A DNA stretch of 64,000 nucleotides, from the NCBI GenBank assembly GCA_963698405.1, contig CAVOQT010000009.1:11185-75184 (forward strand), written 5' to 3'. The notes under the pieces were generated by a model. That model saw only the letters and a program-made list of their open reading frames with translations, was not told the DNA's origin and searched no databases. The translations under genes were made by a program, and so were the position numbers. The stretch's first letter is position 1, and every line of letters begins with the position of its first letter. Below are positions 1,830 to 35,327 of this stretch, piece by piece. This DNA is from an uncultured Gammaproteobacteria bacterium. Lineage in GTDB: Bacteria; Pseudomonadota; Gammaproteobacteria; Steroidobacterales; GCA-2729495.

Positions 1830-2720
1830 TTAGTCGCTGAAGCGCTGCGTGATGTCGGCGTAGGCATCGATGCGCCGGTCGCGCAGAAACGGCCAGCCGA
1901 TGCGGAAGGCTTCGATCTCATCCAGATCGAGTTTCAGTTCGACGATGGCTTCGGCATCAACCGGACCGCGCGCCAGAATGCGGCCATCCGGCGCTACGGC
2001 AAAACTCTGCCCCCAGAACTCGATACCACCGTCACCCGTCGGGTCCGGCTCGAAGCCGGTACGATTGATGGCCAGCACGAAGCAGCCGTTGGCAATCGCG
2101 TGCGCCCGCTGCGCGGTTTCCCAGGCGGCATGCTGACGTTCACCGACCCGGGCTTTTTCCTCGGGATGCCAGCCGATGGCAGTCGGATAGATCAGAACCT
2201 CGGCGCCTTTCAGTGCAGTGAGTCGCGCCGCCTCCGGATACCACTGGTCCCAGCAGATCAACACGCCGAGCTTCGCAGCACCGGTGGCAAATGCCTGAAA
2301 ACCGAGATCACCGGGCGTGAAATAGTATTTTTCGTAGTAACGCGGATCGTCTGGAATATGCATCTTGCGGTACTTGCCCGCATAGCCATTGCGCCCGTCG
2401 AGTACAGCCGCCGTATTGTGATACAGCCCCGCCGCACGCCGTTCGAACAGGCTGACGACGATTGACGCATCAAACTCGGCAGCCAGCGCCGCAAAGGCCT
2501 GCGTCGCTGGTCCCGGTACGGATTCAGCCAGTGCAAAGTGTGCGCTGTCCTCACTCTGACAAAAGTAGCGGCCAAGAAACAGTTCCGGCAGGCAAATCAG
2601 CTTTGCCCCGTTCTTTGCCGCCTGGCGCGTCATCTCCAGCGCTCGTGCGAGGTTGAGCTGCGGTTCCACCGCACAACGCATCTGGATCAGTGCCGCCGGA
2701 AGCTGTCGCTGTCCGCCCAT
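1830..2720 (-). CDS. aguB: N-carbamoylputrescine amidase (carbon-nitrogen hydrolase family)
   Basis: 296 aa with nitrilase-superfamily layout (ICLPELF..., LICWDQWYPE with catalytic Cys context). It starts 2 nt after the speA stop, in the same operon as agmatine-pathway genes. Confidence 0.8.
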   Translation of the reverse strand: MGGQRQLPAALIQMRCAVEPQLNLARALEMTRQAAKNGAKLICLPELFLGRYFCQSEDSAHFALAESVPGPATQAFAALAAEFDASIVVSLFERRAAGLYHNTAAVLDGRNGYAGKYRKMHIPDDPRYYEKYYFTPGDLGFQAFATGAAKLGVLICWDQWYPEAARLTALKGAEVLIYPTAIGWHPEEKARVGERQHAAWETAQRAHAIANGCFVLAINRTGFEPDPTGDGGIEFWGQSFAVAPDGRILARGPVDAEAIVELKLDLDEIEAFRIGWPFLRDRRIDAYADITQRFSD

Positions 2721-2722
2721 CG

Positions 2723-4735: not shown

Positions 4736-5703
4736 TCGCCCAGCACACAGGCAAATATCAATGGGGCGACGATGGTCGCGTCGGACTCGATGATGAACTT
4801 CGGGGTATCGGCAGACAGTTTGCCCCAGGTGATCTTTTCGTTCGGCACCGCACCGGAGTACGAGCCATAGCTCGTTGTGGAATCGCTGATCTGGCAGAAG
4901 TATCCCCAGCGCGGAATATCGCGGATCTGCAGGTCCTGCTCGATCATCGGCACCACGCAGATCGGGAAATCGCCGGCGATACCGCCGCCGATCTGGAAAA
5001 AACCGATGGAATGCTGGTAGCACTCCGACTGATACCAGCGCGCCAGTTCGATCATGTACTCGATGCCGGTACGCACCGTATGCACATTCTTTATGTCACC
5101 GGTGATCACATGCGAACTGTAGATATTGCCGAGTGTCGAATCTTCCCAGCCCGGCACGAAGATCGGCAGGTTCTTTTCGCAGGCCGCCAGCAGCCAGCTG
5201 TCTTTCGGGTCGATCTGGTAATACTGCTTCAGCACGCCCGAGCGCAGGATGCGATAGAAAAATTCGTGCGGAAAATAGCGCTCGCCACTGCGGTCAGCAC
5301 GGGTCCATTCATCGAGCACCGCGTGCTCGATCCGCCGGATCGCCTCCTCCTCGGGAATGCAGGTATCCGTCACCCGGTTCAGATGACGGGCCAGCAGGGC
5401 CTCTTCATCTGCAGCCGTCAGGTGCCGGTACTGCGGAATACGCACATAGTGATCGTGCGCGACCAGGTTGAAGACGTCTTCCTCAAGATTGGCACCCGTA
5501 CAGCAGATCGCATGGACCTTGCCACGCCGGATCATCTCGGCCAGCGACAGCCCGAGCTCACCGGTACTCATGGCACCAGCCAGCGTCATGAACATCAGAC
5601 CGCCAGCGTCCAGATGCCGACCATAGGCGTCCGCAGCGTCGATCAGCGCCGCGCTGTTGAAGTGCCGGAAATGATGATGAACAAACCTGCTGATTTCAGC
5701 CAT
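4732..5703 (-). CDS. deoxyhypusine synthase-like protein (possible homospermidine synthase-type polyamine enzyme)
   Basis: MAEISRFVHHHFRHFNSAALIDAADAYGRHL...AICCTGANLEEDVFNL matches the DHS family pattern. It is translationally coupled to speA. ATG at 5703 preferred over the TTG at 5712. Confidence 0.75.
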   Translation of the reverse strand: MAEISRFVHHHFRHFNSAALIDAADAYGRHLDAGGLMFMTLAGAMSTGELGLSLAEMIRRGKVHAICCTGANLEEDVFNLVAHDHYVRIPQYRHLTAADEEALLARHLNRVTDTCIPEEEAIRRIEHAVLDEWTRADRSGERYFPHEFFYRILRSGVLKQYYQIDPKDSWLLAACEKNLPIFVPGWEDSTLGNIYSSHVITGDIKNVHTVRTGIEYMIELARWYQSECYQHSIGFFQIGGGIAGDFPICVVPMIEQDLQIRDIPRWGYFCQISDSTTSYGSYSGAVPNEKITWGKLSADTPKFIIESDATIVAPLIFACVLGE

Positions 5704-5850
5704 TGGTACCAACCATTGAGTGGGAACGTAACAGCCCCGGGAGTCCCGGCTGTGCGGAGGGCGAAAGAATAAGGTTTAGGGGCGCGGGGAACAACCGTAA
5801 ATTTGCACCGGTGGGCAATGGCGCAAGGCCAGGCCGCCTGCGGGCCGGCA

Positions 5851-6912
5851 TCACTCCGGCGCGACAGGCACCTGCTGGGTCAGGCAGTGGAAGGTGCCGA
5901 GACCCACCACCACCTCGCGGCAGTCGAGGCTGACTATCCGCCGGCCGGGGAAGCAGCGGGCGAGAATCGCGGCGGCCTCCTCGTCAGCGGGGCAGTTGAA
6001 GGTCGGCAACAGGACCACCCGGTTGCCGACATAGAAATTGGCGTAGCTGGCGGGCAGGCGCTCAGTGCCGCGCCAGACAGGCGCCGGCATGGGCAACTCG
6101 ACGACGCGCAGCGGCCGACCATCGAGCAGACAAACCGCTGCCAGGCGCTCACGGTTTTCCTGCAGAGCGACGTAGTTCGGGTCAGCCGGATCCTGCTCCA
6201 TGACAGTCACTACCTGATCCTCGGCGACGAAACGCGTCAGGTCATCGATATGACCGTCAGTGTCGTCGCCTACGATCCCGTCGCCAAGCCAGATCACCTG
6301 GGTGACGCCAAATTGCGCCTTCAGCTGCGCTTCGATGGCGGCCTTGTCAAGCGTCGGATTACGGTTCTCATTGAGCAGGCACTGCTCCGTCGTAAGCAGG
6401 GCACCCGCACCGTTTACATCGATCGAGCCCCCCTCGAGCACCATCGGCAGGTGTCGCACGGGGATACCGAGCACGCCAGCCATATGCTGTGGAATCGCAT
6501 TATCCAGATCGTATGGCGGGTACTTGCCACCCCAGGCGTTGTATTCGAAATCCAGCGCCAGCAGCCGATCTCCGTGCGGCGCGCGGCGCGTCACGAAAAT
6601 GGCACCGTGGTCCCTGCACCAGGCGTCGTTGGTGGGAAACTGGTGAATGGTCACACGCTCCGGCGGCACCCGCCCCGCCAGCAGCTTTTGCACGTGATAG
6701 CCATGCGCTGCATCACGGACATTGATGCGTACCGGTTCGCTGAATGCCAGGGCACCGACCGCCTCGGCCATGGTGCGCTCTACACCCGGCAAGTGGCCCG
6801 GCCAGGTCGCAGTGTTATGTGGCCAGGAAATCCATGTCGCCTGATGCTGCGACCACTCGGCCGGCATACGGTATGCACCGCCATCAGGTGCGCCCTGCAA
6901 TTTCCCTTCCAT
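5851..6912 (-). CDS. aguA: agmatine deiminase
   Basis: YRMPAEWSQHQATWISWPH... and the C-terminal GTFHCLTQQVP (catalytic Cys) are typical of agmatine deiminase/porphyromonas-type PAD. The ATG at 6912 has an AGGAAG SD 7 nt upstream. Confidence 0.85.
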   Translation of the reverse strand: MEGKLQGAPDGGAYRMPAEWSQHQATWISWPHNTATWPGHLPGVERTMAEAVGALAFSEPVRINVRDAAHGYHVQKLLAGRVPPERVTIHQFPTNDAWCRDHGAIFVTRRAPHGDRLLALDFEYNAWGGKYPPYDLDNAIPQHMAGVLGIPVRHLPMVLEGGSIDVNGAGALLTTEQCLLNENRNPTLDKAAIEAQLKAQFGVTQVIWLGDGIVGDDTDGHIDDLTRFVAEDQVVTVMEQDPADPNYVALQENRERLAAVCLLDGRPLRVVELPMPAPVWRGTERLPASYANFYVGNRVVLLPTFNCPADEEAAAILARCFPGRRIVSLDCREVVVGLGTFHCLTQQVPVAPE

Positions 6913-6944
6913 GGAGCCGCTTCCTGCCCGGCAGATACCGCAAC

Positions 6945-7388
6945 TCAAGTGGTACGGATAGACAGCACCGGACAGGCGGCATGGCGCAACACCGCTTCGG
7001 TGGTGCTACCCAGAAGCAGATGCTTCAAACCGCTGTACCCATGCGTAGTCATGACCACCATGCTGGCCTTGTGCGCCCCCGCATAGCTGACGATTTCATC
7101 CGACGGGCGGCCCACCAGCACCGCACCTTTGGCAGTCAGGCCCAGCGCAGCAATACTGTCGCGGACAAAGGCATCAAGGCGGATACGGGCGGAAGTCGTC
7201 AGTTCCTCGATGGACGGGATGGGTACCGGCCCCATATCCAGCGTGGCATAAATCTGCGGCTCCTCCACTACATAGATGCAGTGCACTTCGGCTTTCAGCT
7301 GCTCAGCCATCTGCTGGACCCAGCTGACAGCCGACTTCGACCGCGGCGAGAAGTCTGTCGGGAAGACAATGATGTTTTTTCCGGCCAT
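6945..7388 (-). CDS. universal stress protein (UspA family)
   Basis: 147 aa: MAGKNIIVFPTDFSPRSKSAV...MTTHGYSGLKHLLLGSTTEAVLRHAACPVLSIR, with the canonical Usp ATP-binding G-2x-G-9x-G(S/T) region. Confidence 0.85.
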   Translation of the reverse strand: MAGKNIIVFPTDFSPRSKSAVSWVQQMAEQLKAEVHCIYVVEEPQIYATLDMGPVPIPSIEELTTSARIRLDAFVRDSIAALGLTAKGAVLVGRPSDEIVSYAGAHKASMVVMTTHGYSGLKHLLLGSTTEAVLRHAACPVLSIRTT

Positions 7389-7480
7389 GAAGCGAATCTC
7401 CCTGCATGCTGGGTTGAAGAACCCTGCTCAGCTCTTATTTAGCAGCATCTGCCATGCAAGGGAATACGTACAAACGAATA

Positions 7481-7513
7481 GCTGCGCCCGGACACTGAAT
7501 GCCCGGGCGCAGC
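7481..7513 (-). terminator. hairpin downstream of the PXPV/His-rich gene
   Basis: gctgcgcccgg-N11-ccgggcgcagc perfect 11-bp stem, 15 nt after the stop at 7529. On the minus strand it is followed by tattcgttt. Confidence 0.45.
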
Positions 7514-7528
7514 GCAAGCTGGCAATCT

Positions 7529-7858
7529 TCAGTCGTCACCGTGCCTGCGGTCGTGCCGTCCACCATCCCGCCGGTCGTAGTCACCATCATGCCGACCCTT
7601 ATGATGACGGTAGTGATGACGATGGTGATGACGGTGGTGGCGCCCGCCCGCCCGGTAGGGCTGACCATATGCGGGCGGCGGGGCGTAACTGTAAACCGGA
7701 GCCGGATACCAGGCCACCGGCGCCGGGCGAATATAGCCACCACCCCAAATGACATCCACGCCGAGCCGGACCTGCGGTTCAGAGTGCCCGGCCTGGGCGA
7801 CGGAAACGCAGGCCAGACCGGGCAGAAGGGCGGCCAGAAACAGACTTTTGCGCAACAT
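7529..7858 (-). CDS. small secreted PXPV-repeat / histidine-arginine-rich protein
   Basis: Clear Sec signal MLRKSLFLAALLPGLACVSVAQA|G. Then PAPV..PAPV..APPPAY repeats and the tail GRHHRHHHRHHYRHHKGRHDGDYDRRDGGRHDRRHGDD. GC3-rich codons and a GAGG upstream of the ATG. Confidence 0.6.
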   Translation of the reverse strand: MLRKSLFLAALLPGLACVSVAQAGHSEPQVRLGVDVIWGGGYIRPAPVAWYPAPVYSYAPPPAYGQPYRAGGRHHRHHHRHHYRHHKGRHDGDYDRRDGGRHDRRHGDD

Positions 7859-8032
7859 GAGAACTGACCTCGGTGCTGATGAATTGATGACAGGCTCAGG
7901 GTATGCAGACGGCCTGAATCAGAACTGAATCGATATCGAAGCCGCCATCCTGAGCAGCACCGCACAGCATCGAAATTCCGCAACGCGCAAACTGCCGAAA
8001 ATCCGTTCTGTGTCTGTCAAAGGGCAGCCTTG

Positions 8033-10610: not shown

Positions 10611-10625
10611 TGGCACGTCGCTTGC
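10611..10625 (+). promoter_or_regulatory. sigma-54 promoter of flgB operon
   Basis: TGGCACgtcgcTTGCA, with GG (10612-13) to GC (10624-25) at the canonical 12-nt register, 35 nt upstream of the flgB ATG. Confidence 0.75.
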
Positions 10626-15031: not shown

Positions 15032-15715
15032 ATGAATATCTGTCGATCGATCATCACTGCAGGCATGGCCATGGTGCTGACAGGCCTCGCTGCCTGCGCC
15101 GGCATCAGCGGCCCGCCACATGCAGATTACCGGCCGACAATGCCACCACAGCCGGTACTGCCACCGGCAACCAGCGGCGCCATCTATCAGCCTGCACGCG
15201 GGCTGTCGCTGTTCGAAGACGTAAAGGCACGCCGCGTTGGCGACACAGTGACTATCCGCCTGGCAGAAAAAACACAGGCATCCAAGAGCGCCAGCTCTGA
15301 TGCCAGCAAGGAAAGCTCTGTAGACACCGGAATACCGGTGATCGGTGGCACCACGATCACCCGCAACGGCAAGGAATTGCTGAACAGCGAGTGGGAAACT
15401 GAACAGGACTTCTCCGGCAAGGGCAGCAGCAGCCAGAGCAACAGCCTGAGCGGCAACATCACGGTAACCGTCGCCGAGGTCTATCCGAACGGCAACCTTT
15501 TTGTACGTGGCGAGAAGTGGCTGACCCTCAATCAGGGCGAGGAATTCGTGCAGATCAGCGGCATCGTGCGCCCGGTCGACATCGGCTCTGACAACTCGGT
15601 GGACTCCTACAAGGTTGCCGATGCGCGCATCACTTACAGCGGCCAGGGCACCCTCGCCGATGCCAACCGTCCGGGTCTGCTGACCCGCTTCTTCCTCAAA
15701 CTGTGGCCGCTCTGA
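15032..15715 (+). CDS. flgH: flagellar L-ring lipoprotein FlgH
   Basis: 227 aa with lipobox LTGLAAC and [41 protein letters not shown]. Confidence 0.9.
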
Positions 15716-15738
15716 GCGACCGCCAGGTATTGCACCTC

Positions 15739-16879
15739 ATGGACAAGCAACGCGAACAGATTCGCCGGCACACGCTCTTCCTGCTGCTCGGGGCGGTACT
15801 CATGCTCATCCTGCAGACCGGTCCCGCACATGCGGAGCGGATCAAGGATCTCGCCACAGTTGGCGGCGTGCGCGACAACCAGTTGGTGGGCTACGGACTG
15901 GTGGTCGGCCTGGATGGCACCGGCGACCAGACCACGCAGGCGCCTTTCACCACGCAGAGTCTTATCAGCATGTTGGAGCGACTGGGTGTGACGATTCCGG
16001 CCGGCACCAATCTGCAGCTGAAAAATATCGCTGCGGTGGTCGTACACGCCAGTTTGCCGCCGTTCTGCCAAGACGGGCCAGACGGTTGACGTCACTGCCT
16101 CATCCATTGCCAATGCCAAGAGCCTGCGTGGCGGCACCCTGCTCATCACGCCGCTCAAGGGTCTGGATGGACAGGTCTACGCCATCGCCCAGGGCAATCT
16201 CGCGGTTGGCGGACTCGGTGTGTCCGGCGAAGACGGTTCCAAGGTCTCGATCAACGTACCGAGCGTTGGCCGCATCCCGAATGGGGCTACCGTGGAACGT
16301 GAAGTCCCCACGATCCTCGGCGACACCGAAATGCTCACGCTGAATCTGCGCCAGCCGGATTTCACCACCTCGATCCGGCTTGCCGACAGCATCAATGCAC
16401 TGCTCGGCGCCGGCGTCGCGATTGCACACGATCCGATGTCCGTTCGCGTCCGGGCGCCGGAAACCCAGGCCGCGCGCATCGGCCTGATCTCGACCATCGA
16501 AAACCTTGAAGTCACGCCAGCCGATGCTGCAGCCCGCGTGATCGTCAACTCACGCACCGGCACCGTGGTCATCAACGCCAGCGTCAGGGTATCGCCTGCT
16601 GCCGTCTCGCATGGCTCGCTGATGGTATCGATCACCGAAGACTTCGATGTCAGTCAGCCACAACCCTTTGCGGAAAACGGCGAAACTGTGGTCACGCCGA
16701 GCTCGAACATCAACGTGAGCCAGGGCGAGAACCGCATGTTCGTGTTCAAGCCCGGCGTCGAGCTCAACGATATCGTCCAGGCCGTCAACCAGGTGGGTGC
16801 TGCACCCGGCGATCTGGTGGCAATTCTCGAAGCACTGCGCTCAGCTGGCGCACTGCATGCCGAACTGATCGTGATCTGA
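15739..16879 (+). pseudogene. flgI: flagellar P-ring protein FlgI, interrupted by an apparent 1-nt insertion near 16066
   Basis: Frame 1 reads signal peptide...[31 protein letters not shown]...[14 protein letters not shown], with the stop at 16087-89. Frame 2 from 16067 reads [49 protein letters not shown]... through to 16879, which is the canonical FlgI continuation. Local context is ccg ttc T gcc aag. This could be an assembly error. Confidence 0.85.
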
Positions 16880-16880
16880 C

Positions 16881-17886
16881 ATGACGGCCAACATCAGCAG
16901 CATCAACGACTTTCAGGGGCTGGCGCAACTGCGTCACGATGCCTCTGCACGCTCACCGGAAGCAGCGCGCGAAGCGGCCCGGCAGTTTGAAGCACTGTTC
17001 GTGCAGATGATGTTGAAGAGCATGCGTGACGCCAACGCCGTGCTTGGCGAGTCGGGCACAGATACGACCTATCAGGAAATGTTCGACCAGCAGATCTCCA
17101 TGGAGATGACCCGCGGCAGAGGCCTCGGCATCGCTGACATGATGGCCCGCCAGCTCGGCATCACACCGCAGCAGCCGGCCACAACTGCGGCCTCTTCCCT
17201 CGAAACCTCCATTCCGGCACTGCTGAGCCGTATTCCGGCCCTGCGCAGCGGCGCTGCTCCGACATTTGGCGAACTCCAGACACCGGGCTTCAGCGAATTG
17301 CCGGCACCTGACGCTCTGGCACCCGAGCTGTCTGCGACTCAGCGCGGTCAGCAGCGGTCCTCGCGCTGATTTCCGCCCTGCCGATCGCGAGGAGTTCGTA
17401 CGTGAAATATGGCCGCTGGCCGTCGCTGCCGGCCGCCAACTCGGCGTGGAACCACGCGCCATTGTCGCGCAAGCGGCGCTGGAAACCGGCTGGGGTAGCC
17501 GCCTGATCCGTGACGATGCCGGCATCAGCGGCAACAACCTGTTCGGCATCAAGGCCGATGCACGCTGGAACGGCGAGCGCGTGAGCGTAGCTACCCTTGA
17601 GTACGAAGGCGGTTTACCAAAACCCCAGCGGGCAAGTTTTCGTGCCTATCCGGATCTCGCCGCGGGCTTTGAGGATTATGTCCGCTTCCTGCGCGACAAC
17701 CCGCGTTACAGCGAAGCCCTGCGCAGCGGCGCAGATGCTGGAGCTTATGCCGACCAGCTGCAGAATTCCGGCTATGCCACCGACCCACGTTATGCAGAAA
17801 AGATCCGCAGCATCATCGCCAGCCCGATCCTCGGTTCGGTCGGCGACAACCTAAAGCCCGGCAATGAACTGCCGAACTATCTATGA
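16881..17886 (+). pseudogene. flgJ: FlgJ (rod-binding domain + glucosaminidase), interrupted by an apparent 1-nt insertion about 17340-17366
   Basis: The N-domain (ARQFEALFVQMMLKSMRDAN...) is in frame 0 and stops at 17367-69. The muramidase domain (ADFRPADREEFVREIWP...AQAALETGWG...NNLFGIK...YATDPRYAEKI) is in frame 1 and has no plausible start codon of its own. Confidence 0.8.
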
Positions 17887-17927
17887 AGCCGCCGTGCAAA
17901 TACACGGTCGCGACCAGGTGATATGAG

Positions 17928-19827
17928 ATGAGTGGAACAATCAGCAATGGACTCTCGGCACTGCTTGCAGCCCAGCGCGCATTGCAGACGACGAGCAACA
18001 ATATCGCCAATGCGAACACCGAGGGCTTCGTTCGCCAGCGCATCGATTTCATCGAGAACCCTGGCGTACCTCTCGGCCGTTATACGGTAGGTGCCGGCGT
18101 TTCAGTCTCGAGCATCTCGAGGGTCTACGACCAGTTCCTGACCGACAACCTGCGCACGGCCAGTTCGCTCGAACAGCGCGCTACTGCCTTCAGCGACTTC
18201 GCCACGCGCATGAACACCATCCTTGGCAACCCCGATACGGGCGTCAATACAGCGGTGCAGCGTTTCTTCAATCAGGTCGAGGCGGTAGGCCGCGACCCGA
18301 CATCTGCCGCCCAGCGCAGCCAGTTGCTGCTGGAAGGCGAGAATCTTGCCGAACGGATGCAACAGATCGACAGCCAGCTGGGCAGCATGAACCGTGAAAT
18401 CAACAGCCGCCTCGGGCAGGCCGTCGGCACCATCAATTCGCTGGCCGGACAGGTTGCCGATCTGAACGGACAGATCATGGCCGCTGGCAGCACAGCCGCG
18501 GCTGACCTGCTCGACCGCCGCGATGTCGTGCTGAAGCAACTCGGCGCCCAGATCAACATCACTGCCACTCGCCAGAATGACGGCAGCGTAAACGTGCTGG
18601 TCGGCAGCGGCCAGTCGCTGGTTCTCGGTGTCGGTGCATCGACCTTGCACACTGTGCCGGACCAGTACGACAGCTCGAAGTTGCAACTGGCGATCAGCAA
18701 TGGCGGCCCGTTGCAGAACATCTCCGGCATGGTCAGCGGCGGTACGGTCGGCGGACTGCTCTCATTCCGCACTGATGTGCTCGAAAGCACGCGCCGCGAT
18801 CTCAACCTGCTGGCTGTCGGCCTGGGTGATGCCTTCAATACCCAGCATCGTCAGGGTGTGGATCTGGCCGGCAACCTGGGTGGGGATTTCTTCTCGATCG
18901 GCACGCCGGTGGTTTCCGGCTCCACCAACAATACGGGAACCGCTACCGGTAGCGCGACAATCACCGATGTCAGCGCACTTGTCGGGCACGATTACGAGTT
19001 GCGTTTCAACGGTTCCACGTGGTCGGCGCTGGATCGCACCACCCAGACTGCTGTTGCAACTACGGGCACGGGCAGCGGGGTCGATCCGCTGCTTTTCGGC
19101 GGGCTTTCCTTCAGCATCAGCGGCAGTGCCGCAGCAGGCGACCGGTTTCTGGTACGTCCACTCGGCCAATGCCGCCGATGACTTCCGTGTCGTATTGACG
19201 GAGCCAGCGAAGATCGCTGCTGCCGCACCGATCACGACACTCAACAACACCGCCAATACCTCTCTGGCAACGGTTTCATCGCCGGTGGTCAGCGACATCA
19301 ACGACCCGAAGCTCAGAACCACTGCAACCATCCGCTTTACTTCGCCAACCACCTATGTGGTTTTCACCGGCGGTGGCGCGGATCAGGTTGGCCCGCTCGC
19401 CTATACCAGCGGCGCCGACATCAGTTTTGCCGGCTGGACCACCCAGGTGCATGGCACGCCAGCGACCGGTGACGAGTTTTTCGTACAGGCTACCGGTGGT
19501 GGCAGCGGCGACAACAGCAATGCGCTGGCACTGGCCGGCGTGTCTCAGCGTGGCTTCTTCGCCAACGGCACCCAGTCCGTCATCGACCTCGGCGCCGATA
19601 TCGTCGCCACAGTCGGCTCGACGGCCAACCGGGCCAGCAACGATGCGCGAATCCAGCAATCACTGCGCGAGCAGAGCGAGGTCGATCTGGAGAACGTGTC
19701 TGGCGTCAACCTCGATGAAGAAGCCGCCAACATGCTGCGCTACCAGGATGCCTATCTGGCTGCCAGCAAGGTGGTCAGCATCGCTGACGGCCTGTTCCAG
19801 AACCTGTTGCAGATCGTCGGTCGCTGA
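17928..19827 (+). pseudogene. flgK: hook-filament junction protein FlgK, interrupted by an apparent 1-nt insertion near 19161
   Basis: Frame 0 runs MSGTISNGLSALLAAQRALQTTSNNIANANTEGF...AAAGDRFLVRP and then LGQCRR*. Frame 1 continues SANAADDFRVVLTEPAKIAAAAP...VNLDEEAANMLRYQDAYLAASKVVSIADGLFQNLLQIVGR, the conserved FlgK C-terminus. Confidence 0.85.
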
Positions 19828-19841
19828 GTGAGGCAGTAGTC

Positions 19842-21033
19842 ATGCGTATCGCTTCAAATGTCTATCAGATGCAGTGGCTGTCCTCGATCCAGCGCAAGCA
19901 GACCGAACTTGCAGCCATCCAGCAGCAGACCAGCACCGGCAAACGCGTCAACACAGCTGCCGACGATCCGGCCGGTGCCGCGCAGGCGCTGCTGCTGCAG
20001 CAGGGACTCGACCGCCTGGGCAACTTCAAGAGCAATGCCGAGACCGCCAGCCGGCGCCTGAGCCTCGAGGAAGTGGCGCTGTCACAGGGCAGCGATGCGC
20101 TGAACCGCGTACGCGAACTCGCCATTCAGGCCGCCAATGCCACGCAGACCCGCGAGAGCCGCTCGGCGATGGTCGCCGAGGTCAGCGAGCTGCTGACCGG
20201 TCTGTTCGATACTGCCAACAGCCAGGACGGCCAGGGCAGCTATCTGTTCGCCGGCAACCAGGTTCAGTCACGGCCCTTCGTGCCCGGCACAACCGTGCAG
20301 TACAACGGCGACAGCGGTGCGCGCTCGCAGCGCATCGGCGACACCCGCACCGTGCAGGAAGGCGATTCCGGCTCTGCGGTATTCATGCAGATTCCGGCCG
20401 GCAACGGCACCTATACGGTGACCGGCAACGTCAGCAATCAGGGCTCGACCTACTGGACATCGGCAACAGTCAGCAACGCTTCTGCCTGGGTTGCAGACAC
20501 CTACGCGATCAACTTCACGGCAGCGGACAGCTGGGAAGCACGCGACAGCGGGGGCAGCCTCGTCGCCTCCGGAACCTATGCCGCCGGACAGAGCATCAGT
20601 TTTGCAGGCGTAAGCGTCGGCTTCGAGGGGACGCCGGTGACAGGCGACCAGTTCAGCATTGCACCCAGCGGTTTCCAGAGCGTATTCAAGACCGTACAGG
20701 ACTTCCTCACCACGCTAGACGTCGACACCGGCACGCCGGAAGGGCGCGCCTGGTTCCAGAACCAGCTCAACAACAGCCTGCAGAATCTCGATCAGGGACT
20801 GCAGCATCTGGGCAACATCCGCAGCCAGGTCGGTGCGCGGCTGGCGACCATCGACCGGCAGCTCAGCAGCAATGAGGACATCGACCTGGACCTCGACCCA
20901 GTCGATCTCGGTGATCCGCGATCTGGACTATGCCAGCGCGATTTCACGGCTTGAGCAGCAGCTCAACAGCCTTGAAGCGGCCCAGAAGGCCTTTACGCGT
21001 ACACGATCACTGTCGCTGTTCGACGTTCTCTAG
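19842..21033 (+). pseudogene. flgL: hook-filament junction protein FlgL, interrupted by an apparent 1-nt insertion at 20895-20899
   Basis: Frame 0 is flagellin-like: MRIASNVYQ...AADDPAGAAQ...RSQVGARLATIDRQLSSNEDIDLDL. The conserved C-terminus QSISVIRDLDYASAISRLEQQLNSLEAAQKAFTRTRSLSLFDVL is in frame 1. Context is gac ctc gac cca g. Confidence 0.85.
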
Positions 21034-21034
21034 C

Positions 21035-21098
21035 GCAGGAGCGCTCGGCGCTTCGGCGATCCGCTGAAGGTCCCGCCGCTCCTGCGAGGCGCTCCTGC
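21035..21098. repeat. degenerate REP-like palindromic cluster / terminator after flgL
   Basis: gcaggagcgctcggcgcttcggcgat ... ccgctgaaggtcccgccgctcctgc ... gcgctcctgc. These are related to the gtaggagcggcttcagccgcgat unit at 1762-1820 and form nested inverted repeats. Confidence 0.5.
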
Positions 21099-21131
21099 AC
21101 AAAACTGCGACTTCCGTCACACGGTCGCCAT

Positions 21132-21158
21132 TCAAGTCTCCTCCCGCCGCGCCGATAA
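21132..21158 (+). promoter_or_regulatory. sigma-28 (FliA) promoter of fliC
   Basis: TCAAGTCT-N11-GCCGATAA at the same 19-nt register as the TAAAGTTT-N11-GCCGATAA consensus, 88 nt upstream of the fliC ATG. Confidence 0.7.
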
Positions 21159-21245
21159 CTCAGCTGCACAGCTTCACAGGTGCACCGGAAATGCACCGGT
21201 GTCCGGGAAAGCGGCGAAATTCAGGTAACCACTCAGGAGACGAAA

Positions 21246-22690
21246 ATGCCCAGTGTAGTAAATACCAATGTGTTGTCGCTGAATGCCCAGCGCAACCTGA
21301 CCCGCTCCCAGGACACCCTGGCGACCGCCCTGCAGCGCCTGTCTTCCGGTCTGCGCATCAACAGCGCAAAGGATGACGCTGCCGGTCTCGCCATCGCTGA
21401 CCGGTTCACCACCCAGATCCGTGGTCTGAACCAGGCCGCCCGTAACGCCAACGACGGTATCTCCCTGGCGCAGACGGCCGAGTCCGCCCTGGACGAGCTG
21501 ACCAACAACTTGCAGCGTATCCGCGAGCTGGCAGTGCAGGCCGCCAACGCGACCAACTCCGCCTCGGACCGCGCCGCACTCGACCAGGAAGTGCAGCAGC
21601 GTATCGCTGAAATCAACCGTATCTCCTCGCAGACCTCGTTCAACGGCCAGAAGGTTCTTGACGGCAGCTTCGGCACCGCCGCCTTCCAGGTCGGCGCGAA
21701 CGTCGGCGAGACGATTACGGTGAACCTGACCACGGGTGTGCGCGCTGACCAGATCGGCCAGATCGCCACGTCCACTGGTACGGCAGTGACCTCCAGCGCA
21801 CTGATAGACGGCGGCCTGACCATCGCTGTCGGCCAGGGTGCGGCAGTCAGCATCGGTGCCAGTGCAGCCGGTACTGCCACCACCCAGACCTCTGACAGCG
21901 CCTGGGCCAAGGTCAATGCGATCAATGCAGCCGGCGTTTCCGGCCTGACGGCCACCGCCACCAACGCGACCTCGGGCACTTTCTCGACGGTGTCGACAGC
22001 GCAGCGGCTACCTCCACCTACAACCTGACCATCAACAGCGTAGCGATCTACTCCGGTGCCGACAATCTCGCCGACGGTGCCTCGCTGACGGGTGCCGACG
22101 TCGTCGCACAGATCAACCTGTTCTCGAGCCAGACCGGTGTTTCCGCCTCCATCTCGGGTACCACGCTGACCCTGACGGCGGCTGACGGTCGCAACGTGGT
22201 GCTCGCCGAGACCCTCACCGCCGGCACAGGTGCCACGCTGACCGGTACCGGTATCGCTGCCGCCCAGACGGGCACTCTGCGCGGCACGATCGAACTGTCC
22301 GCTGCGCAGAACATCACCCTTGGTGGTGCCAATGCTGACATCGGCTTTTCCGGCACTTCGATCGCGGTCGACAGCACCACACTGGCGACGGTCAGCGTCA
22401 CCTCGGTGGCCAATGCCAACACGGCGATCCAGCGGGCTGACGCTTCACTGACGGCGGTGTCTTCACTCCGCAGCCAGCTCGGCGCCATCCAGAACCGTTT
22501 CGAATCGACGATCTCCGGCCTGACGGCGGTCTCCGAGAACCTCACAGCTTCTCGCAGTCGTATTCAGGACGCTGACTTCGCCGCCGAAACGGCAGCTCTG
22601 ACCAAGGCGCAGATTCTGCAGCAGGCAGGTGTCGCGGTGCTGGCCCAGGCCAACGCCGTGCCGCAGACCGTGCTGAGTCTGTTCCGGTAA
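21246..22690 (+). pseudogene. fliC: flagellin FliC, interrupted by an apparent 1-nt deletion about 21975-22001
   Basis: AGGAGA SD, then [54 protein letters not shown]... in frame 0, with a stop at 22026-28. From about 22001, frame 2 reads [23 protein letters not shown]...RADASLTAVSSLRSQLGAIQNRFESTISGL...LQQAGVAVLAQANAVPQTVLSLFR, the flagellin C-terminus. Confidence 0.85.
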
Positions 22691-22707
22691 CAGCAAGGCA
22701 TACGGAC

Positions 22708-22737
22708 GGGTGGCCGGTTCAGCTGAACCGGCCACCC
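22708..22737 (+). terminator. rho-independent terminator after fliC
   Basis: gggtggccggttc-agct-gaaccggccaccc perfect 13-bp stem, followed by atctgcttt, 18 nt after the fliC stop. Confidence 0.65.
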
Positions 22738-22819
22738 ATCTGCTTTGGTGATGCCAAACGTGGCTTATGTTGAAGAGATGACTTCCCGCTAGCTCAGTTG
22801 CCTCCAGGAGAGGTAAACC

Positions 22820-23170
22820 ATGGACAGTGTGATGATTCGTAATGCCGCCAGCGCCACGGGAACCAGCCCGTCGCGAGCGGACCAGGGTGGCAGGGTTTTG
22901 CCGGCACTCGGCAAAGGCTTGCCTGATACAGCGAAGGCTGAGGCCGCTCCCGAACGCATGGAGGAAGCCCTCAGTCGCATCCAGAGTTATCTGAGTGCCT
23001 CCAATCGCGAACTGCAGATCAGCATGGATAAGGGCAGCGGACGCACCGTAGTCCGCGTGGTTAACCCGGATACGCAGGAAGTGATCCGGCAGATCCCCAA
23101 TGAAGAAGTGCTCAAACTTGCCGCTTCGCTCAGAGCCGCGGGAGGCGGAATCTTCAGCGACCTGGCGTGA
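22820..23170 (+). CDS. flaG: FlaG family flagellar protein
   Basis: 116 aa: LSASNRELQISMDKGSGRTVVRVVNPDTQEVIRQIPNEEVLKLA is the FlaG signature. It sits between fliC and fliD. Confidence 0.85.
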   Translation: MDSVMIRNAASATGTSPSRADQGGRVLPALGKGLPDTAKAEAAPERMEEALSRIQSYLSASNRELQISMDKGSGRTVVRVVNPDTQEVIRQIPNEEVLKLAASLRAAGGGIFSDLA

Positions 23171-23185
23171 TGGCACATAACTTGC
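23171..23185 (+). promoter_or_regulatory. sigma-54 promoter of fliD operon
   Basis: TGGCACataacTTGCT starts on the nucleotide after the flaG stop. The predicted TSS is about 23197, which argues for the fliD ATG at 23240 over the GTG at 23189. Confidence 0.75.
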
Positions 23186-23239
23186 TCTGTGACAGACAGG
23201 TATCCATCACCAGAACCTGATCCGGGACCGTATGTACGC

Positions 23240-24596
23240 ATGGCAACACTGACCACATCAGGACTTGGCTCCGGCCTCGACATTGCCGGCATCGTCGACA
23301 AGCTCGTCGCTGCAGAACGCGCCCCTATTGCCAATCGCCTCACTGCCAAAGAGTCGAAAGCCAATGAACTGCTTTCGGCTCTGGGCCAGTTCAAGAGCTC
23401 GCTGTCTACCTTCAAGGATTCACTGACGCCTCTGAAGGAACTCAGCACCTTCCAGGGCCGCAAGATCACCGTCGGTGACAACGAGGTATTTACTGCAACC
23501 GCCAGCGAGACCTCGCGCCCGGGAAGTTACTCGGTCGAAGTCACTGCACTGGCCGCAGCCCACAGGATCAGTTCGGCTGCCCAGCCGGATGCCACCACAG
23601 CAGTTGGCACCGGCATCATCAGCATCACCGTCAATGGCACAACTGCACAAATCGCCATCGGCACCGGTGCCAGCTCACTGAATGATATCCGCGATGCGAT
23701 CAACGCAGCACCAGACAATCCTGGCGTCCGCGCCACGATCGTCACCGGCACCGGCGGTGCACACCTGGTCGTGAGCGCCACGAAGACCGGCACCGAGAAT
23801 GCCATCACCATGGCAATAAGTGGCGGCGATGGCGGGCTCGCCCCTTTCGTCTACGCCGCCGGCGGACCATCAAACACCATGACGCAGCTCGATGCAGCGG
23901 CAGATGCCAGCGTCACCATCGACGGCATAACGGTCAGCAGCGCGACCAATACGATTACCAGCGCCATCGAAGGCGTCACGCTGAACCTGGTCAAGACAGA
24001 CGCGGGCACAAAGCTCGACGCTGAATATCGAATTTGACACCGACGGCACGAAACGCTCGGTGGGAAACTTCGTCAACAGCTACAACAAGCTGATAGACAC
24101 GATCACCCAGCTGACCAAGTACAACAAAGACACCGGCGACGCGGGACCATTACTCGGCGACTCCACTGTACGCGGAATCCGCGACCAGTTGCGCCGTGAG
24201 CTCAGCAGCGTGCTCGGCAATACGGACACGGCATCGCTGGCCAGCATCGGCGTGACTACCCAGATCGATGGCAAGCTGGCCATCGATGCCACCAAACTCG
24301 ATGCGGCAATTGCTGACGATTTTGACTCCATCAGCGGGCTATTCACCGGCACCACCGGACTGGCTACCCGCCTGGACACGATTACCAGCGCAACGCTCTC
24401 CAGTGCCAGCGCGATAGCCACCCGTGAAGGCAACCTGAAGACCACGCTCAAGAGCATCACCACCCAGCGTGCATCGCTGGATAGCCGCCTTGAACAGGTC
24501 CGCGCGCGCCTCAGCAAGCAGTTCAACGCCATGGACAGCCTGCTGGCGCAACTCAAAACCACCAGCAGCTTCCTGTCAGCGCAACTACCCAGCTAG
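23240..24596 (+). pseudogene. fliD: filament cap FliD, interrupted by an apparent 1-nt insertion about 24017-24020
   Basis: Frame 2 reads MATLTTSGLGSGLDIAGIVDKLVAAERAPI...LNLVKTDAGTKL then DAEYRI*, with the stop at 24035-37. Frame 0 continues (T)LNIEFDTDGTKRSVGNFVNSYNKLIDTITQL...LSKQFNAMDSLLAQLKTTSSFLSAQL, the FliD C-terminus. Confidence 0.85.
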
Positions 24597-24607
24597 GACA
24601 ACATCCC

Positions 24608-25054
24608 ATGACTTACCCATCACCCAATAACCCGCTACACCAGTACCGCGCAGTAGACGCCTATGGCGCAGCAGCCTCTTCTGACCGGATGCAGCTGGTT
24701 CTCCGTCTGCTGCAGGGTGCGCTGGACCGCATCAGCAGCGCACGCGGCCACATGCAGCGCCGTGAAATCGGACTCAAAGGCGAAGCACTCGGTCGCGCAG
24801 TGCGCATGATCGATGGCTTGCGCGCTTGCCTTGATCACAAGAACGGTGGTGATATTGCGACCAATCTCGCCGCCCTCTATGAATACATGACGCGCAGGCT
24901 GACCGAGGGCAACCTGCGCAATGATCCGCGCGCACTCGATGAAGTCGCCGACCTGCTGGAGGAGATTCGCTCCGGCTGGGAGCAGGTCTCGTCATCGCCT
25001 GCATTGCGCGTCGTGGCACCGGTCAATACAGGAGCCAGCCGGAGCATCTCATGA
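24608..25054 (+). CDS. fliS: flagellin chaperone FliS
   Basis: 148 aa: QYRAVDAYGAAASSDRMQLVLRLLQGALDRI...NLAALYEYMTRRL, typical of FliS. Confidence 0.88.
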   Translation: MTYPSPNNPLHQYRAVDAYGAAASSDRMQLVLRLLQGALDRISSARGHMQRREIGLKGEALGRAVRMIDGLRACLDHKNGGDIATNLAALYEYMTRRLTEGNLRNDPRALDEVADLLEEIRSGWEQVSSSPALRVVAPVNTGASRSIS

Positions 25055-25386
25055 ACTGTCTGGACCGGATCATGGAGCTGACCGACGACATCGAGGAGCG
25101 CGTACTGGCCGCTGACTGGGCCGGCGCAACGGGTCTCGATATCGAGCGTCGGCAGCTGCTGGGTGAATTGTTCGCCCGTCATCCGGATGCGGCACACGAC
25201 AGCGAAAACAGGGCCATTCTCGAACAACTCAAGGCACGCAACGCAGCGACCATGGCGGCAGTAGGCAGCGCCCGGCAGGTACTGACGATTGCCGCCCGAC
25301 AACTGGATGCGGCACCCGCCGTGGTACGCGCCTATGAACGCAATGCCCTGAGCACCAGAGTCAGCACAGCGACGGCAGGAGGCTGA
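25051..25386 (+). CDS. fliT: probable FliT-like flagellar chaperone
   Basis: 111 aa helical protein overlapping the fliS stop by 4 nt, at the position of fliT in Pseudomonas-type clusters. The assignment rests on position and size, not on a motif. Confidence 0.5.
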   Translation: MNCLDRIMELTDDIEERVLAADWAGATGLDIERRQLLGELFARHPDAAHDSENRAILEQLKARNAATMAAVGSARQVLTIAARQLDAAPAVVRAYERNALSTRVSTATAGG

Positions 25387-33499: not shown

Positions 33500-33928
33500 A
33501 TGGCCAGACGCAACCGCATGCAGGTGCTGCAAAAACTCGCTGAGCACACCGAGGCGGAGGCCTCACGGCGTCTCGCCGAACGACTCAAGCTGCTCAATGC
33601 CGAGGAGCGCCGTCTGGAACAGATCCGGAACTATCTGGCCGACTACTCAGGCAATAGCCAGCCCAATCCGCCCGCCATGACGATCAGCGCATTGCGCAGC
33701 AATCGTGGTTTCATGGAACGACTGCGTAATGCAGCAGATGAGCAGCGCGGCAATGTCGAGACACAGCGACATCAGGCCGAACAACATGCAGCCCAATGGC
33801 GCGCTGCACGGGCCCGCAGTCTGGCGCTCGAACGTCTGGGCGACCGGATTGAACAACGCGAACAGCAACGGCAGGACCGCCTCGAACAACTACGGCTCGA
33901 TGAGATCGCCAATCAGGGCAAAACGTGA
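33500..33928 (+). CDS. fliJ: flagellar export protein FliJ
   Basis: 142 aa coiled-coil protein (LQKLAEHTEAEASRRLAERLKLLNAEERRLEQIRNY) directly after fliI. Confidence 0.8.
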   Translation: MARRNRMQVLQKLAEHTEAEASRRLAERLKLLNAEERRLEQIRNYLADYSGNSQPNPPAMTISALRSNRGFMERLRNAADEQRGNVETQRHQAEQHAAQWRAARARSLALERLGDRIEQREQQRQDRLEQLRLDEIANQGKT

Positions 33929-33998
33929 ACCCGCTTCGATCGAGCTGGCACGGAGATTGCTTTAATCACTCAGACAACATGAAAAACACATATCAGCA

Positions 33999-35327
33999 GT
34001 GAGTGACCTGAGTCTCATTACGGCTCCTCCGGCAGACGCGCAGGCGTTCGCGGCAAGTGCGCTGCGTCCACTGCCTGCGGCGCACGGAACGAGCTCAATT
34101 GCCCCGGCCCGGCCCGGCAACCCGGCAGCACCTGATACAGCTGGCGACAGCAGTGCAGAGCCTTTTGCCGCATTAATGATGGGGTTTCTGCAGAGCGCGC
34201 AGCCCGCCACAACGATAGAATCAGCCTTCGCTGCAACAGCCGACACAGCCGCTGGCGAAGAACTGTTCAGTCCAGATTCGGGCCCGGATGGCAGCGCAGT
34301 GCAAACGACAGCAGGACCTGGCCTACCGTCACCTGCAACAACGCATACCAGCTTCATCAGCGGCACGAGTCTGCCGACTGGCGGCAACAGTTTGCCGCCG
34401 GATATGCCGGAACTGTCTGCCGGCTCAACCGTTACTGCACACCCGGACGCCGAAGCTGGTGCGCGCGATACGCTGGCTGCCACCCGGATTTCACTGGCCG
34501 ATATCGAAAGCAGCCGTGAGCTGAACATGACGGCGATGCCACGCCCGGCACCGACGGATATAGAGAACTACACCAGGCGCTTTACAGTCGCCGCAGCTGC
34601 TCCAGGCTTGTCAGTCACCAGTTCTGCAACTGACAGTACATCCGATCTGCTGCCCGGCGCCGAAGCCGGCGGCAGTCTGCTGCAACCGGCCGGGCTGACC
34701 GCCAGCGACCTGTCCCGCCTGGTGCAGAACCTGTCACAGGCCGGGGGCCGCGAGCCGTTTTCCGCCGCATTCAGCACTGAAGGCACAGGCATGAGTACCC
34801 TGTTCAGCGAAACCAGCCCGACCGCAGGCGGTGCGAAGAGTGCCGACAGCGGTCTCAGCAGTATGGTGCGCGGTGGACTGAGCGGGTTTCCGCCACTACA
34901 GCCGCTCGGCTCACCACAGGCATGGACCGCCGGGCTGGGCGACCGCTTGCTGACACTTGCAGGCCCGGGCACGCACTCGGCACGCCTGAGGCTGCATCCC
35001 GAGAGCCTCGGCACCCTGGACATCGAAATCAAGGTTGCCGATAACACCGCTCAGGTGTGGTTCGGCGCACAGCACAGCCAGACTCGCGAAGCCATCGAAG
35101 CCTCACTGCCACAATTACGCGAGATGTTTGCCGAACAGGGCATTCGACTGACGCAGGCCCAGGTGGATTCCGGTGCCGATCAACGTGCGCCCGATCAGCA
35201 GTCGGCATTCAACGAGCCGGACCATGACCGGAATGCATGGCGCAGACCATCCGTCAGCGCCAGCCTGTCTGATGCACTGGCACCCACCCGCCAAGCCACA
35301 CATCGCCTGCTCGACGCCTGGGCCTGA
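33999..35327 (+). CDS. fliK: hook-length control protein FliK
   Basis: GTG start. Ala/Pro/Ser/Thr-rich disordered N-part and the conserved C-domain ARLRLHPESLGTLDIEIKVADNTAQVWFGAQHSQTREAIEASLPQLREMFAEQGIRL. Confidence 0.85.
   Translation: MSDLSLITAPPADAQAFAASALRPLPAAHGTSSIAPARPGNPAAPDTAGDSSAEPFAALMMGFLQSAQPATTIESAFAATADTAAGEELFSPDSGPDGSAVQTTAGPGLPSPATTHTSFISGTSLPTGGNSLPPDMPELSAGSTVTAHPDAEAGARDTLAATRISLADIESSRELNMTAMPRPAPTDIENYTRRFTVAAAAPGLSVTSSATDSTSDLLPGAEAGGSLLQPAGLTASDLSRLVQNLSQAGGREPFSAAFSTEGTGMSTLFSETSPTAGGAKSADSGLSSMVRGGLSGFPPLQPLGSPQAWTAGLGDRLLTLAGPGTHSARLRLHPESLGTLDIEIKVADNTAQVWFGAQHSQTREAIEASLPQLREMFAEQGIRLTQAQVDSGADQRAPDQQSAFNEPDHDRNAWRRPSVSASLSDALAPTRQATHRLLDAWA

Follow-up and report, generated by a model that had tools for sequence, protein, structure and literature searches.

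Frame Breaks in Six Neighbouring Flagellar Genes of a 64-kb Window Are Probably Local Consensus Errors

Results

The window (the whole 64-kb stretch of DNA that was analysed) contains a run of flagellar genes from flgI to fliD, in which ORF listing and translation resolve each of flgI, flgJ, flgK, flgL, fliC and fliD into two + strand ORFs in different frames. The features of this stretch are given below, with the two bases that include the extra base set in brackets.

15739..16879, + strand, flgI (P-ring protein); ORFs 15703-16089 and 16220-16879; extra base at 16065/16066, CCG TT[C T] GCC
16881..17886, + strand, flgJ (rod-binding and glucosaminidase domains); ORFs 16881-17369 and 17266-17886; extra base at 17333-17336, TCT GC[G A] CTC
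17928..19827, + strand, flgK (hook-filament junction protein 1); ORFs 17928-19181 and 18628-19827; extra base at 19163/19164, CCA CT[C G] GCC
19842..21033, + strand, flgL (hook-filament junction protein 3); ORFs 19842-20954 and 20833-21033; extra base at 20894/20895, GAC CT[C G] ACC CAG
21132..21157, + strand, sigma-28 (FliA)-type promoter-like site upstream of fliC; TCAAG-N13-GCCGATA, intact; match to the consensus pattern only
21246..22690, + strand, fliC (flagellin); ORFs 21180-22028 and 22196-22690; frame change at 21990-22001, in the variable central domain
22820..23170, + strand, flaG; unbroken, the sole spared gene of the stretch and also the smallest (351 nt)
23171..23186, + strand, sigma-54-type promoter-like site in the flaG-fliD gap; TGGCAC-N5-TTGCT, intact; pattern match only
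23240..24596, + strand, fliD (filament cap); ORFs 23189-24037 and 24060-24596; extra base at 24016/24017, AAG CT[C G] ACG CTG

Further sigma-54-type promoter-like sites, likewise found by pattern match, lie at 10611 (upstream of flgB), 33946 and 35451.

A preliminary description of this DNA had reported six neighbouring flagellar genes as frame-broken, which the ORF listing and translation confirm, as does tblastn: the single unbroken ORFs of four relatives (L018, L003, L004 and L005) match two window frames for exactly these six genes, and one frame per gene for all other genes at 6.2-26.9 kb. The extra bases were positioned by DNA alignment with relatives, and the break coordinates given previously differ from these by no more than a few bases. 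Each of the five unambiguous events is a +1 insertion. At the fliC break the window has 23 nt and the relatives have 21 or 24, so that this event may be read either as a net +2 at ~21990 or as a -1 at ~22001; the earlier count of five insertions and one deletion is therefore compatible with the data, with the five insertions clear and the deletion being one of two readings of fliC. None of the break sites lies in a homopolymer of more than 2 nt, as judged from the sequence contexts of all events, which extends the earlier remark that most breaks avoid obvious homopolymers. Only weak short repeats were detected by TRF, near the flgJ and flgL sites.

Conceptual repair requires the removal of one base per gene (for fliC, the removal of two or the addition of one) and yields stop-free FlgI, FlgJ, FlgK, FlgL, FliC and FliD of 379, 334, 632, 396, 481 and 452 aa, compared with 379, 333-338, 632, 396, 480-486 and 451-457 aa in the relatives. 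The repaired lengths equal those of the orthologues or lie at most 5 residues away, with no other lesion: FlgI has 379 aa in all relatives, FlgL is equal in length to its relatives, FlgK has 631-633 aa in its closest homologues, FliC has 480 aa in L082 and 486 aa in L018 and L003, and FliD has 451 aa in L082. This comparison of repaired proteins with orthologues, which the preliminary description had proposed, thus gives agreeing lengths, and the DNA alignments place the indels to a few bases (for fliC, to 21990-22001).

The repaired genes are as constrained as the unbroken genes next to them. At columns that are invariant among the relatives, the window has a residue of its own in 19/1285 cases for the broken genes and in 13/1297 for those unbroken genes; relaxed constraint, nonsense codons and larger deletions were not found in any of the six repaired genes, nor was a run of window-unique residues found in any gene compared, and compensated frameshifts or other hidden damage were rejected on the latter ground. 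These observations bear on the reading that the breaks are six independent, real +1 frameshifts in a very recently inactivated, non-flagellate organism that may have retained the MS-ring, C-ring and type III export gate. Had six or seven indels accumulated neutrally, substitutions in the tens and a handful of nonsense codons would be expected alongside them, but none is seen, and the promoter-like sites that precede fliC and fliD are undamaged. Moreover, indels that arise spontaneously in bacteria tend to be deletions and to fall in homopolymer runs, whereas here all five clear events are insertions outside runs and none is a deletion, a spectrum that is not the one expected of genuine pseudogenes.

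The rest of the window is unbroken. About 57 other genes, with ~53 kb of coding sequence, are whole, and the earlier statement that the window contains no further broken gene holds according to both profile scans and the list of gaps relative to L082. In NCBIfam and Pfam scans of ~55 other products, no second fragment of any family was found, and nearly all of the products with a family match span the full profile; relative to L082, no other gap of a length not divisible by three was found in any verified gene at 5.7-26.8 kb. The short fliQ is present as a whole 94-aa ORF, and the unbroken non-flagellar genes include those for polyamine synthesis, norB, copA and PFOR. Two apparent exceptions were dismissed: a putative seventh break at ORF 7435-7983 (- strand) concerns a wrong ORF, the real gene at 7529-7858 (- strand) being whole, and two adjacent MORN-repeat ORFs do not form one split gene, as the second possesses a separate start and N-terminus. 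No Rfam family was found in the window at threshold.

Under a uniform rate over the coding sequence, all six events would fall within the stretch with p ~6.5e-6. The earlier argument that such clustering is not to be expected of uniform random error is thus correct, and the cause of the breaks is likely local rather than uniform. With so many intact genes and this clustering against it, generic assembly noise, spread uniformly over a low-quality contig, is very unlikely, even if one relative described below (L009) demonstrates that ~0.6 frameshifts per kb are possible in MAGs of this clade. The events are confined to 8.3 kb, and the other ~55 kb of the window are clean; within the stretch, each large gene carries exactly one event (p ~0.01 under random placement there). 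Genuine inactivation draws support from the tight clustering, from this single hit per large gene, from the absence of assembly noise elsewhere in the window, and from the plain presence of the frameshifts in the deposited sequence. However, the first break would have left all ~45 flagellar genes equally neutral, yet ~35 kb of them are untouched, and the broken set is positional, not functional: the broken genes form a contiguous block, in which flgI and flgJ are included, while flgB-H (flgH, flgD and flgE among them), fliK, motA/B, fliA, flgM/N and flaG/fliS/fliT are whole. Recombination or a foreign origin of the stretch was also rejected, since the relatives rank similarly by per-gene identity within the stretch and beyond it, and the GC content is flat (~0.61 throughout the window).

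The sequence at the breaks has a common signature. In all five clear events the extra base stands at a codon boundary, with no residue gained or lost, and may be read as one of a pair of different synonymous third-position bases: TT[C T] in flgI, GC[G A] in flgJ and CT[C G] in flgK, flgL and fliD. In four of the five (flgI, flgK, flgL and fliD), both bases of the doublet occur among relatives as alternative synonymous alleles. The flgI codon is TTC in L082 and TTT in L018, L003, L004 and L005; the flgK codon is CTG in L082 and CTC in L003; the flgL site reads GAC CTG ACC CAG in L082, with otherwise identical surroundings, and has CTC in L018 and L005; and the fliD codon is CTG in L082 and CTC in L018. 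The extra base in flgJ falls within the variable inter-domain linker. A random insertion would imitate a synonymous doublet with p = 0.48, which gives p = 0.025 for five out of five in the window.

The same signature was found in L009 (CAWBMW010000026.1, MFD00709.bin.2.155, contig_86348), a MAG of a sister lineage whose bin name fits the Nanopore-only Microflora Danica series. This assembly has at least seven coding frameshifts, in flgD (two), flgF, flgG, flgJ, flgL and fliD, all of them +1 third-position doublets, with C followed by G in 6/7; the positions differ from those in the window, as do some of the genes (flgD, flgF, flgG). When the window and L009 are pooled, all 12 events are third-position synonymous doublets (p = 1.4e-4), and 10 of them are C/G pairs, as against an expected fraction of 0.105 for random insertions (p ~1e-8) and a C/G share of only 22% among synonymous third-position differences. 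One further doublet, CA[T C], occurs in flgB of L015. That the window shares its signature with an assembly bearing a Nanopore-only-series name speaks against genuine inactivation; to our knowledge, no mutational process inserts third-position pairs of synonymous alleles.

The breaks of the window are absent from ten close relatives (L018, L003, L004, L005, L001, L002, L081, L082, L083 and L084) for the gene parts covered, and the comparison with sister genomes that had been suggested earlier thus finds the six loci unbroken in these assemblies. By their record titles, the relatives are MAGs of uncultured environmental organisms; most of the ten have short-read-style contig names, the platforms being judged from record and contig names. 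The closest, L082, has 89% DNA identity to the window. The contigs of eight of them (L001, L002, L003, L004, L005, L081, L083 and L084) end in or at the edge of the stretch, which fits heterogeneity of this locus in natural populations.

The comparison with relatives also bears on programmed recoding, in which a +1 ribosomal frameshift or another bypass in each gene would regulate the late flagellar genes. Such a mechanism would accommodate one event per gene, the retention of all junction residues and the normal constraint on both halves, and prfB-type programmed +1 frameshifting resembles the window in that one extra nucleotide parts two conserved ORF halves. However, unlike those of the prfB type, the window sites are not conserved in orthologues and have neither an in-frame stop or rare codon nor a stimulatory motif. 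The shift sites are lacking in all close relatives, including L082, and only L009 has such breaks among them, at other positions and partly in other genes; no slippery or hungry-codon motif is common to the sites (the next zero-frame codons are GGC, GAC, GAC, ACT and TGC), and no homopolymer would permit transcriptional slippage. Hence, we consider programmed recoding exceedingly unlikely.

Three further candidates were rejected. Phase variation by slipped-strand mispairing does not apply, as no homopolymer or short tandem repeat tract occurs at the indels beyond the weak TRF repeats. A Racon-type window-boundary artefact is not supported by the spacings of the events (1271, 1828, 1730, 1096 and 2027 nt), which have no common period. 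As for miscalls at methylation motifs, TCGA is present at three sites, but in flgL and fliD the motif arises only through the inserted base, and errors of this kind would be genome-wide.

Discussion

From the deposited sequence, we infer that the six breaks are very probably consensus errors of a MAG assembly that is probably of the long-read Nanopore type. The preliminary description had offered local poor assembly or polishing as one of two readings, and this one is supported by the doublet signature, its recurrence in L009 and the absence of the breaks from ten relatives. In the mechanism proposed as most likely, two strains with synonymous SNPs between them across flgI-fliD were co-assembled, and at some SNP sites the consensus wrote both alleles side by side rather than one; each such site would then have gained one base, by which the frame would be broken. 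A likelihood-based consensus might prefer "both bases, with one deleted in each read" to an infrequent transversion miscall, a preference that would explain both the dominance of C/G pairs and the occurrence of insertions only. Given that the remaining ~55 kb are clean, a local cause (strain heterogeneity or low coverage) must be assumed, and we would further infer that the source assembly was long-read and that the population was locally mixed and hypervariable in this stretch. The organism itself probably has an ordinary, complete flagellar regulon and a normal flagellum. Two observations sit less easily with this artefact: it leaves the pattern of one event per large gene unexplained, and transition doublets (C/T and G/A), which account for two of the five in the window, match the step in which transversions are costly less well.

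Errors of this general kind are familiar from Nanopore MAGs, in which single-base frame errors truncate conserved proteins, as measured by IDEEL truncated-protein tests (PMC12313526, PMC9262707, PMC13087279). The Microflora Danica long-read MAGs are Nanopore-only assemblies made with Flye --meta and one round of Medaka polishing (PMC12313526), and frameshift errors persist more in ONT than in HiFi soil assemblies (PMC13087279). The classic Nanopore error is the deletion in a long homopolymer, spread genome-wide, whereas the events described here are third-position insertions outside homopolymers, mostly C/G pairs, within 8.3 kb, a pattern indicative of a mixed population with polymorphic sites rather than of raw signal error. 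A limited full-text search and term look-ups did not find a description of this exact doublet signature.

The other reading that had been put forward, recent inactivation with a retained export machine, is not supported, as constraint is kept, the promoter-like sites are intact and the broken block is positional; we regard six independent inactivating frameshifts as unlikely. Flagellar remnants are known from host-restricted bacteria, such as the Buchnera basal bodies without filament and the flagellar pseudogenes of Shigella and Yersinia pestis, where genes are deleted or carry many lesions, loss proceeds by functional module and the genome decays in general. The window resembles these in that, as written, its genes for filament, cap and junction could not function, whereas those of the export gate and C-ring are whole. 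Unlike in such remnants, each broken gene carries a single clean insertion, the rest of the 64 kb is free of decay, and the P-ring and rod-cap genes are broken while those for the L-ring, rod, hook, stator, sigma-28 and regulators are whole; neither the module-wise loss seen in Buchnera nor a host-restricted, decaying context is found in the window. A real, localised burst of +1 insertions in one ~8-kb tract of an environmental gammaproteobacterium, with very recent loss of the P-ring, rod-cap, junction, filament and cap proteins, is also quite unlikely. If it did occur, error-prone repair or a recombination event might be its cause, and the window would capture both motility loss and a clustered-mutation process in bacteria unusually soon after the event, with the regulon, including the export gate, otherwise whole.

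If the breaks are consensus errors, they are, as biology, most likely without significance, but they matter as a caution: MAGs in public databases, perhaps species representatives among them, can contain groups of false pseudogenes in the loci that vary most in nature, such as those for flagellin and other surface structures, and a naive reading of such groups would be motility loss or immune evasion. The doublet signature (a +1 insertion of different synonymous third-position bases, mostly C then G) may provide a cheap, reference-free flag for such artefacts, which could serve both to distinguish them from true frameshifts and to repair them.

Protein searches yielded several minor observations. 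The six 84-aa junction-spanning peptides, used as a chimeric query for conspecific proteins, gave no match above 96% over a whole segment, and the repaired full-length FlgK had a best match of 91%. Among unbroken homologues, the best identities were 96.6% for FlgI, 93.9% for FlgL and 91% for FlgK, and a comparison of the members of ten 90% clusters likewise gave a best value of 96.6%, for FlgI. Look-ups for an independent assembly did not find the exact products of FlgH, FlgG, FlaG, FlgC, FliN or the truncated FlgI, FlgJ and FlgK. The source contig (88,627 bp) is listed under NCBI and ENA with no names for its proteins, as are proteins from the MFD contig of L010, and the exact FliS/FliT and FliJ/FliK products are present in short Logan contigs of run ERR12037370, a run with a very large file; both are circumstantial hints of a long-read source. 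A paper search for this run gave no matches. Entry P0062 of the protein collection corresponds to the 417-aa FlgK fragment of the window itself.

Six flagellar genes with frame breaks

On the plus strand, flgI, flgJ, flgK, flgL, fliC and fliD each consist of two ORFs in different frames. Single unbroken ORFs of four related metagenome genomes (L018, L003, L004 and L005; 81-83% DNA identity) match two window frames for exactly these six genes, and one frame only for all the remaining genes from 6.2 to 26.9 kb. DNA alignment with the relatives located the lesions as follows.

Frame breaks by window position (plus strand), with the junction context and the base pair in question bracketed
flgI, 16065/66 (+), extra base, CCG TT[C T] GCC
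flgJ, 17333-36 (+), extra base, TCT GC[G A] CTC
flgK, 19163/64 (+), extra base, CCA CT[C G] GCC
flgL, 20894/95 (+), extra base, GAC CT[C G] ACC
fliC, between 21990 and 22001 (+), net +2 or -1
fliD, 24016/17 (+), extra base, AAG CT[C G] ACG

Repair of the six genes by removal of the extra bases yields stop-free FlgI, FlgJ, FlgK, FlgL, FliC and FliD of 379, 334, 632, 396, 481 and 452 aa, whose lengths equal those of the orthologues or lie within five residues of them; identity to the nearest unbroken homologue is 96.6% for FlgI, 93.9% for FlgL and 91% for FlgK. The preliminary description had reported one single-nucleotide frameshift in each of these genes and had proposed aligning the repaired proteins with orthologues; the breaks are confirmed, the alignments place the extra bases within a few bases of where it had put them, and the orthologue comparison pins the five insertions and matches the lengths.

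The breaks are confined to 15.7-24.6 kb, where six of the seven genes are affected and only the small flaG is spared, as against none of about 57 other genes in the window. NCBIfam and Pfam scans of about 55 further products found no family divided between two ORFs, nearly all products with a family match span the full profile, and fliQ is whole. Against the closest relative, L082 (89% DNA identity, window 5741-26842), every gap in a verified gene is a multiple of three in length, apart from the six events. Both lines of evidence uphold the earlier observation that no other gene in the window is broken, and since such clustering has p about 6.5e-6 under a uniform rate, the earlier argument against uniform random error is sound.

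Signature of the lesions

Each of the five unambiguous events is a +1 insertion, and none lies in a homopolymer longer than 2 nt; the preliminary description had said of most that they are not in obvious homopolymers. The extra base always lies at a codon boundary, the last residue of the upstream frame and the first of the downstream frame being neighbours in the orthologue alignment. Each event can be read as two different bases written in one third-codon position, either of which encodes the same amino acid (hereafter a doublet). In flgI, flgK, flgL and fliD, the bases of the pair correspond to the alternative alleles of the nearest relatives; in flgL, for example, L082 reads GAC CTG ACC CAG and L018 has CTC at that codon. 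In simulations on the repaired genes, a random insertion resembled a synonymous third-position doublet with probability 0.48, so that five of five gives p = 0.025. Weak short tandem repeats adjoin two insertion sites (GACCTN x3.7 at 20876-20898 in flgL, and a unit of about 10 nt x2.2 at 17339-17359 beside the flgJ site); their periods are incompatible with +1 slippage. Programmed recoding was also considered and can in practice be dismissed, since the sites lack both conservation and a shift motif.

Among 81 related loci that were scanned for split flagellar genes, L009 (CAWBMW010000026.1, MFD00709.bin.2.155, contig_86348) stood out. By its name, this genome belongs to the Microflora Danica long-read catalogue, which according to PMC12313526 is Nanopore-only, with Flye --meta as the assembler and a single round of Medaka polishing. 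It carries at least seven frameshifts (two in flgD, and one each in flgF, flgG, flgJ, flgL and fliD) within L009:5300-18100, with none of this kind in the flanks of 5.3 kb (upstream) and 2.6 kb (downstream). Each of the seven resolvable ones is a +1 insertion at the third position of a codon, mostly C then G (AC[C G], GG[C G], CC[C G], AC[C G], GT[C G], GC[G C] and GC[C G]), and the flgG site reads ACC or ACG in relatives; an eighth frameshift is likely in the signal-peptide region of flgH. When the window and L009 are pooled, 12 of 12 events show the doublet pattern (p = 1.4e-4) and C/G pairs account for 10 of the 12, where random insertions would give an expected fraction of 0.105 (p about 1e-8); among the synonymous third-position differences of these genes, the share of C/G is only 22%. 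L015 (JAWKZI010000005.1) is a third genome with the signature: at 4640-4665 one extra base splits flgB and turns a His codon into the doublet CA[T C].

None of the window's breaks occurs in ten other relatives (L001-L005, L018, L081-L084), in the gene parts that these assemblies cover; most of the ten have short-read-style contig names, and L001 has one apparent split, in flgC. The comparison with sister genomes that had been suggested thus yields ten relatives free of the window's breaks and one, L009, that carries the signature partly in other genes. Since a frameshift mutation has no cause to follow codon position and a strain-polymorphic site does follow it, we ascribe the signature to assembly rather than to the organism itself.

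Artefact or inactivation

Our results, which are indirect evidence, indicate that the six breaks are probably a local consensus artefact of a long-read metagenome-assembled genome. Of the two readings offered in the preliminary description, local poor assembly or polishing is the one favoured by the third-position doublets, the same signature in L009 and the absence of the window's breaks from the ten close relatives. The other, a genuine and very recent inactivation of the six genes with loss of flagellin exposure and retention of the export machine, finds no support and is unlikely. Given bacterial mutation spectra, six or seven neutral indels should come together with some stop codons and with substitutions numbering several tens. 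At columns invariant in all relatives, however, repaired FlgI, FlgJ, FlgK, FlgL and FliC differ at 19/1285, close to the 13/1297 of unbroken neighbours, and the six repaired genes contain no nonsense codons. Promoter-like sites are also in place, of sigma-28 type before fliC and of sigma-54 type before fliD.

Promoter-like sites by window position
21132, sigma-28 type, upstream of fliC
10611, sigma-54 type (TGGCAC-N5-TTGC[AT], as for the next three), upstream of flgB
23171, sigma-54 type, upstream of fliD
33946, sigma-54 type, upstream of fliK
35451, sigma-54 type, upstream of fliL

Moreover, a first inactivating hit would leave all of the roughly 45 flagellar genes equally open to decay, yet about 35 kb of them are undamaged. 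The broken genes adjoin one another in a single block that does not correspond to a functional module: it takes in the P-ring and rod-cap genes, and those for the L-ring, rod, hook, hook-cap, ruler, stator and sigma-28 are whole. Everything other than artefact or inactivation shares a very slight remaining chance.

A consensus artefact could arise if two strains, near-identical in the flanks and differing across flgI-fliD, were merged into one contig. Where a SNP divides the reads evenly, a consensus based on likelihood may favour writing both bases, as this would need one deletion per read, a cheap Nanopore error, and choosing a single base would need a rare C/G miscall in half of the reads. 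A consensus that keeps both alleles would account for the errors always being insertions, for the two bases being different, for their place at third positions and for the dominance of C/G pairs. The flgI-fliD locus includes fast-evolving surface-exposed proteins, and the contigs of eight close relatives (L001-L005, L081, L083, L084) stop inside or at the edge of the stretch, at equivalents of 16.9-22.9 kb, several within fliC, most reaching 8-10 kb upstream. These contig ends suggest that flgI-fliC is hard to assemble owing to strain heterogeneity or multiple flagellin alleles. The mechanism gives no account of there being exactly one event per large gene (p about 0.01), which we treat as chance. 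A useful by-product is a recognisable error signature.

Run ERR12037370 is probably the source sample or one with the same strain. The exact FliJ product lies on a 2.1-kb Logan contig of this run (window 33500-35327) and the exact FliS product on one of 1.2 kb (window 24608-25386), adjoined in matching positions by FliK- and FliT-family genes, respectively. The start of the FliS contig, about 50 nt before fliS, coincides with the border of the error-bearing stretch. The large size of the run would fit deep long-read sequencing, which is circumstantial evidence.

Gene content of the window

The window is a gammaproteobacterial segment (GC 0.61) with a complete flagellar regulon (flgNMA, flgB-L, fliC, flaG, fliD, fliS, fliT, fliE-R, flhBAFG, fliA, motAB), which also holds genes for a PilZ-domain protein, a histidine kinase and a sigma-54-dependent response regulator, and is flanked by polyamine genes, copA, norB and PFOR. 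The sigma-54-type site before flgB is also kept in four related loci (L009, L010, L008, L006).

Further features by window position
1830-6948 (-), compact polyamine cluster: N-carbamoylputrescine amidase-like, speA (arginine decarboxylase), deoxyhypusine/homospermidine-synthase-like and agmatine deiminase genes
7529-7858 (-), small whole gene, secreted-looking product of 109 aa
59086-60353 (+), two neighbouring MORN-repeat proteins, 231 and 186 aa

In the polyamine cluster, speA alone reaches its NCBIfam equivalog cut-off, the other members scoring below. The 109-aa product, which has no Pfam or NCBIfam match, combines a conserved N-terminal half with a His/Arg-rich, low-complexity tail, and its gene is kept at the same position in L082, L084, L018, L004 and L003. 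The MORN-repeat pair, which appears to be two separate genes rather than the halves of one, sits between norB and PFOR in the lowest-GC part of the window (0.56-0.58).
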